Virus record (IMG/VR): IMGVR_UViG_2675903417_000003
From: a virus
Taxonomy: Duplodnaviria; Heunggongvirae; Uroviricota; Caudoviricetes
Reading direction: 5' to 3' (one strand)
DNA length: 46,078 nucleotides
Shown: piece by piece, positions 3,344-7,929 of the stretch
How the letters are laid out: every line of letters begins with the position of its first letter
Numbering within the stretch: the stretch's first letter is position 1
Program-made: the position numbers and the translations under genes
The notes under the pieces: generated by a model
What the model saw: only the letters and a program-made list of their open reading frames with translations
What the model was told of the DNA's origin: nothing
Database searches by the model: none

Positions 3344-3751
3344 TTATTTTATTGATTTATTTTTACGCGCTTTAAGCATTTCTTCGAAGAGTTTGTTGAA
3401 GTTTTCTACTCTTGCGCGCATTTCAGACAGCAAGGCTTCCTGCTCGGAAGATGGAAGAGCATCGAATAATTCGATCAATTCTTTGTGGTTGGGAGTTAGC
3501 TCTGTTTCCACATGAAGTTCTTGTGCAGGCACTGGTGCCTTGTCTTCGTCACCAAACATTAGCCATGTAGGTGAGCACTTCAGAGCATCCGCTAAAGCAA
3601 ACAATCGTTTTCCGACTGGCTGGGTTTCGTCTCTTTCCCATTGTGAAATTGTGACGTGAGCAACTCCAGCGAGGCGCGCAGCTTCTCGTTGTGTTAAGCG
3701 TAATTCTTTTCGTCGCGCCAGAACTCGCTGGCCTAGGGTTCTTGTATCCAT
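3344..3751 (-). CDS. dicA: DicA-like HTH (XRE/cI-type) repressor
   Basis: 135 aa; HTH LRLTQREAARLAGVAHVTISQWERDE and C-terminus close to recalled DicA; divergent from dicC. Confidence 0.9.
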   Translation of the reverse strand: MDTRTLGQRVLARRKELRLTQREAARLAGVAHVTISQWERDETQPVGKRLFALADALKCSPTWLMFGDEDKAPVPAQELHVETELTPNHKELIELFDALPSSEQEALLSEMRARVENFNKLFEEMLKARKNKSIK

Positions 3752-3774
3752 AGTTAGGTAATTCTAATTTTTCT

Positions 3775-3818
3775 TGACTTAGGTATCCCGCGCACAATAA
3801 TGTTAGAAAAGTCTAACA
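3775..3818 (+). promoter_or_regulatory. dicC promoter (-35 TTGACT 3775-3780, -10 ATAATG 3797-3802) overlapping the operator palindrome TGTTAGA-AAAG-TCTAACA (3801-3818)
   Basis: Sigma-70-like hexamers with 16-bp spacer; perfect 18-bp palindrome across the -10/+1 region in the dicA-dicC intergenic space. Confidence 0.5.
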
Positions 3819-3831
3819 AGAGGGGGCTTTG

Positions 3832-4059
3832 ATGCTTAAAGTTGACGCAATTACTTTTTTTGGCAGCAAAACAAAGCTTGCCAATGCCGCAGGGGTGAGA
3901 CTGGCAAGTGTTGCTGCTTGGGGGATACTGGTTCCTGAAGGTCGCGCGATGCGTCTACAGGAGGCATCTGGCGGGGAGCTTCAGTATGATCCCAAAGTTT
4001 ATGATGAATATCGTAAGACGAAGCGGGCGGGGCGGTTGAACAATGAAAATCACTCCTGA
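3832..4059 (+). CDS. dicC: DicC (Cro-like) regulator
   Basis: 75 aa MLKVDAITFFGSKTKLANAAGVRLASVAAWG...; AGGGGG Shine-Dalgarno at 3821-3826. Confidence 0.85.
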   Translation: MLKVDAITFFGSKTKLANAAGVRLASVAAWGILVPEGRAMRLQEASGGELQYDPKVYDEYRKTKRAGRLNNENHS

Positions 4060-5550: not shown

Positions 5551-5973
5551 GTGGCAAAAGTTTTTACACAAGAAGAGCGGGAAAAAATTAAATGGCAGGT
5601 GGTGGAACTCGTGCGCCAGAGCGGCCGTGAGACGTTACGGCAACTGGAAGCTAAAACAGGTGCGACTAGATATCTGATGAGCGTTCTTGCCAGAGAGCTG
5701 GTAGCCAGTGGCGATGTATACAACTCCGGCTACGGGTTATTCCCCTCTGAACAGGCGCGTAAGGACTGGCAAAACGCCCGCAAAAAACTCTCGAGGGCAA
5801 AGGTGAAGAAACCTGCTGTGGTTGATCCGGACCTTATCTGGTCATCACCTGACGGAGAAATACGTCGCTACGACAGTCGCCTAAACATAATCTGTCGCGA
5901 GTGCCGGAAGAGCGAAGTTATGCAGCGCATACTGGCTTTCTATCAGGGTAATTTTCAGGACGTGGCGCAGTGA
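5551..5973 (+). CDS. Hypothetical protein (possible winged-helix), translationally coupled to the downstream methyltransferase
   Basis: 140-aa ORF with GTG start and AAGGGGGA Shine-Dalgarno; GTGA overlap with the next gene. Confidence 0.55.
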   Translation: MAKVFTQEEREKIKWQVVELVRQSGRETLRQLEAKTGATRYLMSVLARELVASGDVYNSGYGLFPSEQARKDWQNARKKLSRAKVKKPAVVDPDLIWSSPDGEIRRYDSRLNIICRECRKSEVMQRILAFYQGNFQDVAQ

Positions 5974-6326
5974 GTGCACCGGCAACCATTCTTGATATGT
6001 GCTGTGGCAGCCGCATGTTCTGGTTCGATAAGTCTGACGAACGGGCGATATTCAGCGATATCAGAAAAGAAGGATACACATTACGCAATGGGAGACGCTT
6101 GATTATCAGCCCTGACATTATCGCAGATTTTCGTGCATTATCATTTGCAGACGCATCTTTTTCGATGGTTGTATTAGACCCTCCGCATCTTGAGAGTGTT
6201 GGTGATAACGCCTGGATGGGAAAGAAATATGGACGGCTGAATAAAGATGCCTGGCGTGATGATTCGCGACAGAGATTTAAAGAAGCCTTTCGGGTGTTGA
6301 GGCCGCACGGCGTTCTGATTTTTTAA
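5970..6326 (+). CDS. SAM-dependent methyltransferase (N6-adenine/N4-cytosine type), probably truncated by a premature TAA
   Basis: Motif I-like DMCCGSRMF and motif IV VVLDPPHL; only 118 aa; the frame stays open for 29 more codons after the TAA at 6324-6326. Confidence 0.55.
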   Translation: MSAPATILDMCCGSRMFWFDKSDERAIFSDIRKEGYTLRNGRRLIISPDIIADFRALSFADASFSMVVLDPPHLESVGDNAWMGKKYGRLNKDAWRDDSRQRFKEAFRVLRPHGVLIF

Positions 6327-6588
6327 TGGAATGAAACGCAAATACCGGTAAGCCAGATTCTGGCACTGACAGACAGAAAACCTGTTATCTGTCAACGAAC
6401 AGGGAAAAAACGATAAAACCCACTGGATTATTTTTATGAAAGAGGCATCCAGTGAGTAGATTCGTAAGGCTACAGATACGTATATCTGAATAATTAAATT
6501 CAGTTCTGTAAATAAAATTTAATCCTTAACCGGATGGATTTCTGCACCCTCAGAACATCAGGAGGCCGCCCGAAAGGGCGGTAGTGAA

Positions 6589-6699
6589 ATGCGAAAGTTC
6601 AAAATTATTATTGAAACGGGAATAGCTGGTGGAGATTTTGAGGATGTATTCGAAGTGGACGATGACGCAACACCTGAGGAAATTCATGACGGAGCATAA
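6589..6699 (+). CDS. Small ORF (36 aa), first of three tandem small ORFs
   Basis: MRKFKIIIETGIAGGDFEDVFEVDDDATPEEIHDGA; preceded by GGAGG and a GCCGCCC-GAAA-GGGCGG hairpin; frame continues 23 codons beyond the TAA. Confidence 0.3.
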   Translation: MRKFKIIIETGIAGGDFEDVFEVDDDATPEEIHDGA

Positions 6700-6748
6700 G
6701 AAATTTTCTTTAACTACTGCAATTACTCATACCACGAAATAAAAGACG

Positions 6749-6940
6749 ATGAGGAAGAACAAGGTGGCTGATTTTTGTTCAGCTAAATATAACATCAGTT
6801 TTGAAGAGCGGGATGAACTATTAATGGACTATGGTGAGTTACGCGGTGGAAGTGCTGCTGATGTCGAATCCTAGCGTGATGACTATGAAGCGGGAAAAAC
6901 TCCGGTCGAAGCATATTGTGATGAGTGGGGCGATGAATGA
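6749..6940 (+). pseudogene. Small acidic ORF interrupted by an in-frame TAG (6872-6874)
   Basis: MRKNKVADFCSAKYNISFEERDELLMDYGELRGGSAADVES-TAG-RDDYEAGKTPVEAYCDEWGDE; ATGA overlap with the next ORF. Confidence 0.35.
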
Positions 6941-7224
6941 GCGAGATTAATTATCAGGAAGGGCATGAAACGGCGGGGCAAGCAAAACCAGTGGCATGGC
7001 GATATCGCTACGTGAAAAAAGGCGTTACGGACTTTCAGGGGAAGTAGTGGTCTGGTGACTGGAAATATGTACCGAAAAAAGAGGATTGTAACGACAGGCC
7101 GAACTATCAAATTCAGGCCTTATTCACTGCCTCACCAGTCCCAGTTACATCAGAAGAACTGGTTAAAGCTGTGCACTTTTATGAACAACTAAAACGCGAA
7201 AATCCACCAACATCCGGCAACTAG
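6937..7224 (+). pseudogene. Small ORF interrupted by an in-frame TAG (7045-7047)
   Basis: MSEINYQEGHETAGQAKPVAWRYRYVKKGVTDFQGK-TAG-WSGDWKYVPKKEDCNDRPNYQIQALFTASPVPVTSEELVKAVHFYEQLKRENPPTSGN; 95 codons in one frame. Confidence 0.35.
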
Positions 7225-7478
7225 ATTAATGGATTAACTATGTCGGTTAAACGACCAGCCAACTGAAAAAGCGGAAACCTGATTACAGGTTGCCAGATAA
7301 GGCAATGAGCTACCTGGCGCGGAACGGACTGATAAGTATGGGGAATGTTTTACGATGAACCTTTAGACTAAAGAGTTTGTAACGCTATGTAAGTGATTTT
7401 TTCTGGTTTAGATATTTATATGTCCGGCCAAATTGAGGTGTGTTTAAATGTAATTGCACATTGATTGTAGGAGGAATA

Positions 7479-7658: not shown

Positions 7659-7929
7659 ATACAGCGAACTCCATTGGTTTAGTTGGATATTTACTGTGCT
7701 GGACAAAAACGGTTTGCGGGGAAATCTTAGTTAAGTAGAATGACTGCGGGTGCTTGAGGCTATCTGCCTCGGGCATGGACACCAACGGCAGATAGAGAAA
7801 AGCCCCAGTTAACATTACGCGTCCTGCAAGACGCTTAACATTAATCTGAGGCCAATTTCATGCTAGACACATGTAGGTTAGCCTCTTACGTGCCGAAAGG
7901 CACGGAGAAGCAGGCTATTGTTAACACCA

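Follow-up and report, generated by a model that had tools for sequence, protein, structure and literature searches.

A probable unitary pseudogene of a class I SAM-dependent methyltransferase with two lesions in a Qin-type lambdoid prophage of Escherichia coli

The locus and its prophage surroundings

The stretch of viral DNA analysed here, called the window (46,078 nt), is colinear over positions 3921-26419 with the Qin-type lambdoid prophage of E. coli ATCC 8739, at 99.2% identity. In that strain the prophage is inserted beside rspB/ynfA and its order begins with integrase, exonuclease, ydfD, dicB, dicA/dicC, a YdaT-like gene, a replication gene, a DUF977 gene and a methyltransferase gene, followed later by relBE, hokD, ydfU, an antiterminator gene, cspB/F, the lysis genes and terminase. 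The sole break in colinearity with ATCC 8739 is a stretch of about 500 bp between BLAST segments (window 3424-3921 against locus L005), which by coordinate transfer lies around dicA/dicC and would suggest a different immunity allele.

The subject of this study is the methyltransferase gene (Table 1). Its open reading frame starts with GTG and encodes a 118-aa product, MSAPATILDMCCGSRMF...DPPH...GVLIF, or in a longer excerpt MSAPATILDMCCGSRMFWFDK...VVLDPPHLES...RPHGVLIF. The SAM-binding motif I is present as ILDMCCGS at residues 7-14 (the LDxCCGS loop after β1, with DMCCGS itself at residues 9-14), and D30, the acidic end of β2, is retained. Motif IV is kept as DPPH at residues 70-73, but the position before it has L in place of F69, a residue conserved to at least 90%. 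The GTG overlaps the stop codon (TGA) of the DUF977 gene upstream as GTGA (5970-5973), an arrangement that recurs as the same 4-nt start/stop overlap in the locus of the intact homologue P0001 (L007), and the DUF977 neighbour is common to the window, to L007 and L008 and to ATCC 8739. From this layout the DUF977 gene is predicted to be translationally coupled to the methyltransferase ORF. A promoter and terminator scan returned weak consensus matches only, one poor "terminator" being the T-run that precedes the TAA, and Rfam gave no match inside the methyltransferase gene.

Downstream, the DUF7167 gene has an internal TAA of its own, and with the hypothetical gene that follows, three disabled genes in a row precede an insertion sequence (IS) in the prophage early region. 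The counterpart of the IS transposase gene in related genomes is assigned to the IS1202-like ISEsa1 / ISNCY family and annotated as partial. Just upstream of it lies a strong Rfam match to the sok antitoxin RNA, which suggests a hok/sok-type locus apart from the hokD annotated further downstream in the ATCC 8739 copy. In strain AH21 (locus L012, NZ_CP081711.1 2284365-2286962), an IS1B element additionally splits the same methyltransferase pseudogene, a third disabling event beyond the stop codon and the frameshift described below.

Table 1. Coordinates of the features at the methyltransferase locus (window positions) and of the structural elements in the model of the intact homologue P0001 (residue numbers)
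Feature	Position	Strand	Description
DUF977 (LygF-like) gene	5551-5973	+	upstream of the methyltransferase ORF; intact; Pfam PF06163, E = 5e-29
Whole methyltransferase pseudogene (probable)	5970-6459	+	490 nt = 163 codons plus 1 inserted base; ancestral 162 codons
Retained 5' ORF	5970-6326	+	118 codons plus TAA; = RefSeq WP_001310834.1
Lesion 1, premature TAA	6324-6326	+	replaces AAA (Lys119); DNA alignment column 365
Post-stop remnant, original frame	6327-6408	+	WNETQIPVSQILALTDRKPVICQRTGK = ancestral residues 120-146
Lesion 2, +1 G insertion	6402-6404	+	GGG, against GG in intact alleles; single-column alignment gap
C-terminal remnant, +1 frame	6409-6456	+	NDKTHWIIFMKEASSE; original stop TAG 6457-6459
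DUF7167 gene (PGAP family)	6589-6771	+	internal TAA 6697-6699: MRKFKIIIETGIAGGDFEDVFEVDDDATPEEIHDGA*EIFFNYCNYSYHEIKDDEEEQGG
Hypothetical gene	~6937-7358	+	PGAP "frameshifted; internal stop"; coordinate transfer from ATCC 8739
sok antitoxin RNA	7748-7919	+	Rfam RF01794, 104 bits, E = 7e-24, full model
Transposase ORF, 437 aa	7993-9306	+	HTH + rve_3 domains; IS in prophage early region
β1	residues 7-10		P0001 model
β2	residues 26-30		P0001 model
Hairpin	residues 34-46		P0001 model
β4, then DPPH	residues 64-69		P0001 model
Helix	residues 82-87		P0001 model
Helix	residues 95-109		P0001 model
β5	residues 110-121		P0001 model
αE	residues 127-131		P0001 model
β6	residues 138-144		P0001 model
β7	residues 150-156		P0001 model

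Two lesions in the reading frame

The lesions were read from a DNA alignment of the window with the intact allele of E. coli O111 and a second pseudogene allele. The original prediction, made from the window sequence, had described an ORF with SAM-binding and DPPH motifs that ends at the TAA and continues for 29 codons when read through, and its coordinates and translation are correct. It took this as suggestive of inactivation by a premature stop, and the comparison with intact homologues bears this out: at the site of the TAA they have AAA (Lys), a residue (K119) that hardly varies in the homologue alignments and is conserved to at least 90% over the diverse family, and the frame behind the stop corresponds to conserved C-terminal residues. 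The proposed alignment with intact homologues, now carried out, matched 24 of 27 post-stop residues to residues 120-146 of the 162-aa P0001 (BLASTP E = 1e-15), and a natural end at the position of the window's TAA occurs in none of the 119 homologues with 150 aa or more. The original prediction also gave an open run of 29 codons a one-in-four chance of arising by accident; the arithmetic is right ((61/64)^29 = 0.25), and the homology of the extension makes the estimate irrelevant.

Read through in the same frame, the sequence continues as WNETQIPVSQILALTDRKPVICQRTGKKR and then meets a TAA at 6414-6416. This second TAA is an artefact of the frame, because a +1 G insertion directly precedes the A6 run at 6405-6410, 26 codons 3' of the nonsense codon; the 29-codon extension is thus homologous over 27 codons and then runs out of frame. 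The C-terminus lies in the +1 frame, where the remnant NDKTHWIIFMKEASSE is identical to residues 147-162 of P0001 at 14 of 16 positions (E = 3e-9). With this second lesion, overlooked in the original prediction, the ancestral gene extends over 5970-6459 and encodes 162 aa, not the about 149 aa then proposed. In silico repair of both lesions (T6324A and deletion of one G from 6402-6404) restores an ORF of 162 aa with 88% identity to P0001. The conserved positions K119-W120, P138 and F155/K157 are therefore not in one reading frame in the window, owing to the TAA at codon 119 and the frameshift. Re-initiation after the stop was rejected as an explanation, since the ATG at 6326-6328, which overlaps the TAA, lies in another frame and opens only ATG GAA TGA.

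Intact homologues and the fold of the ancestral enzyme

The family to which the gene belongs is large: a search clustered at 90% gave 6694 hits, and clustering at 50% identity gave 1111 clusters with E <= 1e-10. Among the matches listed from the representative library, full-length homologues align over query residues ~5-158, and the best 120 homologues commonly have lengths of 156-167 aa, or of about 248 aa with a C-terminal extension. Lengths below 156 aa occur in only two of these 120, namely P0006 (133 aa) and P0020 (155 aa), each of which has a frameshift. The intact alleles P0001-P0004 have 161-162 aa. The 44 C-terminal residues, which follow the stop in the window, are among the best conserved of the family (KWNETQIP...QRTGK.DKTHW..F.K), its KTHW..F.K motif being nearly invariant; D9 and D30 are invariant in an alignment of 104 diverse sequences.

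Two intact alleles were most informative. P0001 (EPU1370308.1, 162 aa, E. coli) follows a DUF977 gene, as in the window, and WP_000145671.1 (157 aa) adjoins yfdR in a prophage of E. coli O111; the latter is the nearest full-length DNA match, with 89% identity over 89% of the query. Where the window has TAA and GGG, both have AAA (codon 119) and GG, and both keep the consensus residues H36, C39, D40, P58, F69, R76 and G102. Longer intact homologues without the lesions thus exist, and the window sequence past the lesions is still homologous to them.

Profile searches placed the family among phage methyltransferases. PHROG 954 ("DNA methyltransferase") matched the 118-aa product with E = 6.7e-58, the match being confined to profile positions 52-165 of 229, whereas an intact 157-aa homologue matched with 2e-86 over positions 50-201; the window ORF covers part of the core of about 155 residues, and the remaining core lies in the out-of-frame remnants. 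P0001 matched the PADLOC profiles MTase_II (PDLC03288, 2.4e-71) and oMTase (PDLC03730, 1.3e-47). In Pfam, both the gene and its intact homologue matched only Methyltransf_11 and Methyltransf_25, each weakly; Methyltransf_11 was matched in 87 of 104 diverse family members and PF01555, also weakly, in just 12 of these 104. The NCBIfam search gave no significant match. An assignment to the N6_N4_Mtase family (PF01555, the M.EcoGII type) was rejected on the Pfam matches of the gene itself. YfdM of the K-12 prophage CPS-53, representing the Dam-like phage N6-adenine methyltransferases, was likewise rejected as a relative; by eye it has NPPY near its C-terminus, without DxCCGS or the other family motifs. 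Searches of the literature on this gene, its family, the Qin methyltransferase and phage PhiR42_1 found nothing specific.

The structure of intact P0001 was predicted with AlphaFold2 from the 104-sequence alignment, built from 50%-cluster representatives and reaching down to 40% identity, and the model has a mean pLDDT of 95 and a pTM of 0.89. An earlier model (mean pLDDT 51), from an alignment of 23 sequences that were all at least 75% identical, was discarded. Measured on the accepted model, a protein that stops at residue 118 lacks αE, β6, β7 and the end of β5, so that the predicted fold could not form completely from the 118-residue fragment. Foldseek against the PDB matched the model to generic class I methyltransferases with probability 1.0 and query-normalised TM scores of 0.5-0.58, including Trm11 (tRNA m2G10), an m4(2)C synthase, M.TaqI (DNA N6-adenine) and HemK. 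M.TaqI, Trm11 and HemK share with the family the class I Rossmann fold, the placement of motif I before motif IV and the (D/N)PP(Y/H/F) signature; their identity to it is 15-19%, and the family differs in its length of about 155 aa without a separate target-recognition domain. Sequence searches of the PDB gave weak generic methyltransferase matches only (best PH0226, E = 9e-6) and no close solved structure.

The ancestral product would thus be a putative minimal Rossmann-fold class I SAM-dependent methyltransferase, catalogued as a Type II/orphan DNA methyltransferase. Because of the DPPH motif and the Foldseek matches to amino-methyltransferases, it most likely methylated the exocyclic amino group of a nucleic-acid base.

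Population distribution, decay and alternative explanations

The allele of the window is common in E. coli. A 61-mer spanning the TAA was found exactly in 473 of 5426 complete genomes (~9%), always on the chromosome, and a 63-mer spanning the GGG in 376 of the 5426, to which close variants starting at query position 3 add more. By megablast, the region is covered to at least 80% in 774 of the 5426 genomes. The repaired AAA version of the 61-mer had no full-length 100% match in this set, the best rows being TAA alleles at 98.4%. The exact 118-aa protein WP_001310834.1 occurs on at least 1000 contigs, and the phage record PV340562 (PhiR42_1, host ECOR13) matches the region with 100% identity. 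In a single metagenome contig, GAA stands in place of TAA as the sole difference in 900 bases, and the frameshift persists; this contig represents drift or error within a dead allele and not an intact relative. The annotation of the locus by PGAP is inconsistent, since some genomes are given a 118-aa CDS and others, e.g., CFSAN064036, a pseudogene labelled "frameshifted; internal stop". WP_001310834.1, annotated as "class I SAM-dependent methyltransferase" in ATCC 8739 and many other genomes, has the identical sequence and prophage context, hence the feature already exists in public annotation. In this sense the pseudogene is ordinary and already known.

The selective constraint on the gene was assessed on the repaired protein, which deviates at eight of the 98 columns with a conservation of 90% or more among 119 homologues (H36Y, C39R, D40N, P58S, F69L, R76S, T94A and G102R), compared with a family median of 2 and maximum of 8 such deviations. 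Of the residues affected, P58, F69 and G102 keep a conservation of 90% or more when the comparison is widened to the alignment of 104 sequences reaching down to 40% identity. The window lineage has accumulated 13 synonymous and 15 non-synonymous changes, against 9:7, 6:5 and 6:1 in intact comparators, a signal of relaxed constraint that is drawn from few sites and small counts. Pairwise dN/dS against intact alleles is 0.12-0.21, only modestly above the 0.11-0.13 among the intact alleles, which indicates that most of the divergence predates inactivation. Three common haplotypes exist in the TAA lineage, R76/L99, R76/S99 and S76/S99, the last being that of the window, and imply that the stop is older than L99S and R76S. 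Invariant residues are also changed in rare variants of this lineage (D30G, W18R and R108W).

Taken together, we consider it very probable that 5970-6459 is an old unitary pseudogene of a 162-aa prophage class I SAM-dependent methyltransferase, with two fixed lesions, in a decaying Qin-type prophage. The ancestral gene would have been carried in the early region of enterobacterial lambdoid prophages, after the replication genes and DUF977. In the Qin-type lineage, codon 119 would have changed from AAA to TAA and a G would have been inserted 26 codons downstream, and both lesions appear to have become fixed across this prophage lineage. The cell would then make at most a 118-residue fragment, presumably devoid of methyltransferase activity, and the sequence would have drifted after inactivation, probably neutrally, with substitutions at invariant sites.

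The main alternative is that the 118-residue N-terminal fragment is a maintained functional product, e.g., a SAM-binding or regulatory one, and that only the C-terminal part of the gene is dead. Its ORF is intact from the GTG, coupled upstream, keeps DMCCGS and DPPH, and is very widespread; RefSeq lists it as a protein. The wide spread nevertheless follows from a prophage that is fixed in the chromosome, at the same site beside rspB, and is inherited vertically, and the substitutions argue against maintenance, as the radical changes at invariant family positions all fall inside the retained 118 codons, R76S and L99S postdate the stop, and the rare variants destroy the invariant D30 and W18. 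Moreover, the Rossmann sheet of the fragment is predicted to be incomplete, with β6-β7 and part of β5 missing, and in AH21 the ORF is further split by IS1. We therefore regard a maintained fragment as very unlikely.

The probability is smaller still for a full-length enzyme made by recoding, i.e., by read-through of the TAA combined with a +1 shift or transcriptional slippage at GGGAAAAAAC. The second lesion does adjoin a homopolymeric A6 run, in which the P0020 allele seems to have a -1 change, yet efficient transcriptional slippage is known from runs of about nine or more, and the stop stands in the context TAA-T, in which termination in E. coli is most efficient. Recoding would require two independent low-efficiency events at sites that are not conserved, as intact homologues have AAA and GG, and the substitutions accumulated at invariant sites disfavour a functional product. 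The least credible explanation, with a next to negligible probability, is that the TAA arose through faulty sequencing or assembly, or as a mutation private to one strain. The stop does end a T5 run (TTTTT-AAA to TTTTTT-AA), an error-prone context, and the metagenome contig with GAA could be read in the same way. This explanation is however refuted by the identical 61-mer, shared by PV340562 and by 473 complete genomes that were assembled independently, while the GAA contig is a singleton that differs at one of 900 bases and keeps the frameshift. The pseudogene with two lesions thus remains the preferred explanation.

The biological weight of this pseudogene is slight, as it adds only another decayed accessory gene to a lambdoid prophage that is itself defective or decaying. 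The spread of the 118-aa fragment as a methyltransferase in RefSeq nevertheless means that inventories of E. coli methyltransferases, REBASE-style or counting defence systems, over-count it. The two shared lesions offer a handy lineage marker for the Qin-type prophage.

The same family has been disabled elsewhere in E. coli. In a CPS-53-like prophage adjoining yfdR in E. coli O157:H7 ECP17-46 (L011:603-1076), an independent nonsense mutation, W95* (TGG to TAG), is present; its exact 63-mer occurs in 202 of 5426 complete genomes and the non-stop version in 189. Together with the lesions of the window lineage, this means that most copies detectable by megablast in E. coli are dead, by different lesions. 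The separate knock-outs thus comprise K119* with the frameshift (473 genomes), W95* (202), the slip in the A6 run (P0020) and the IS1 insertion (AH21). That such recurrent, independent knock-outs reflect selection against methyltransferase activity in lysogens seems to us unlikely, and plain neutral prophage decay is an alternative. M.EcoGII of E. coli O104:H4, a prophage orphan non-specific adenine methyltransferase of 349 aa, is silent in the lysogen and deleterious under constitutive expression (PMC5778455). It resembles the ancestral gene as a prophage-borne orphan DNA methyltransferase, but it belongs to an unrelated family and is intact and unexpressed, while the gene in the window is genetically inactivated. 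If selection did act, a low-specificity methyltransferase without a separate domain could, by analogy, be toxic as M.EcoGII is.

The frameshifted homologue P0020 (82 member sequences) ends with ...GKTIKPTGLFL, as expected from a 1-base deletion in the A6 run. Judged from its protein sequence, it would be a -1 slip in this run, and if this is correct, the G2-3/A6 tract would be a recurrent indel hotspot in the methyltransferase gene.
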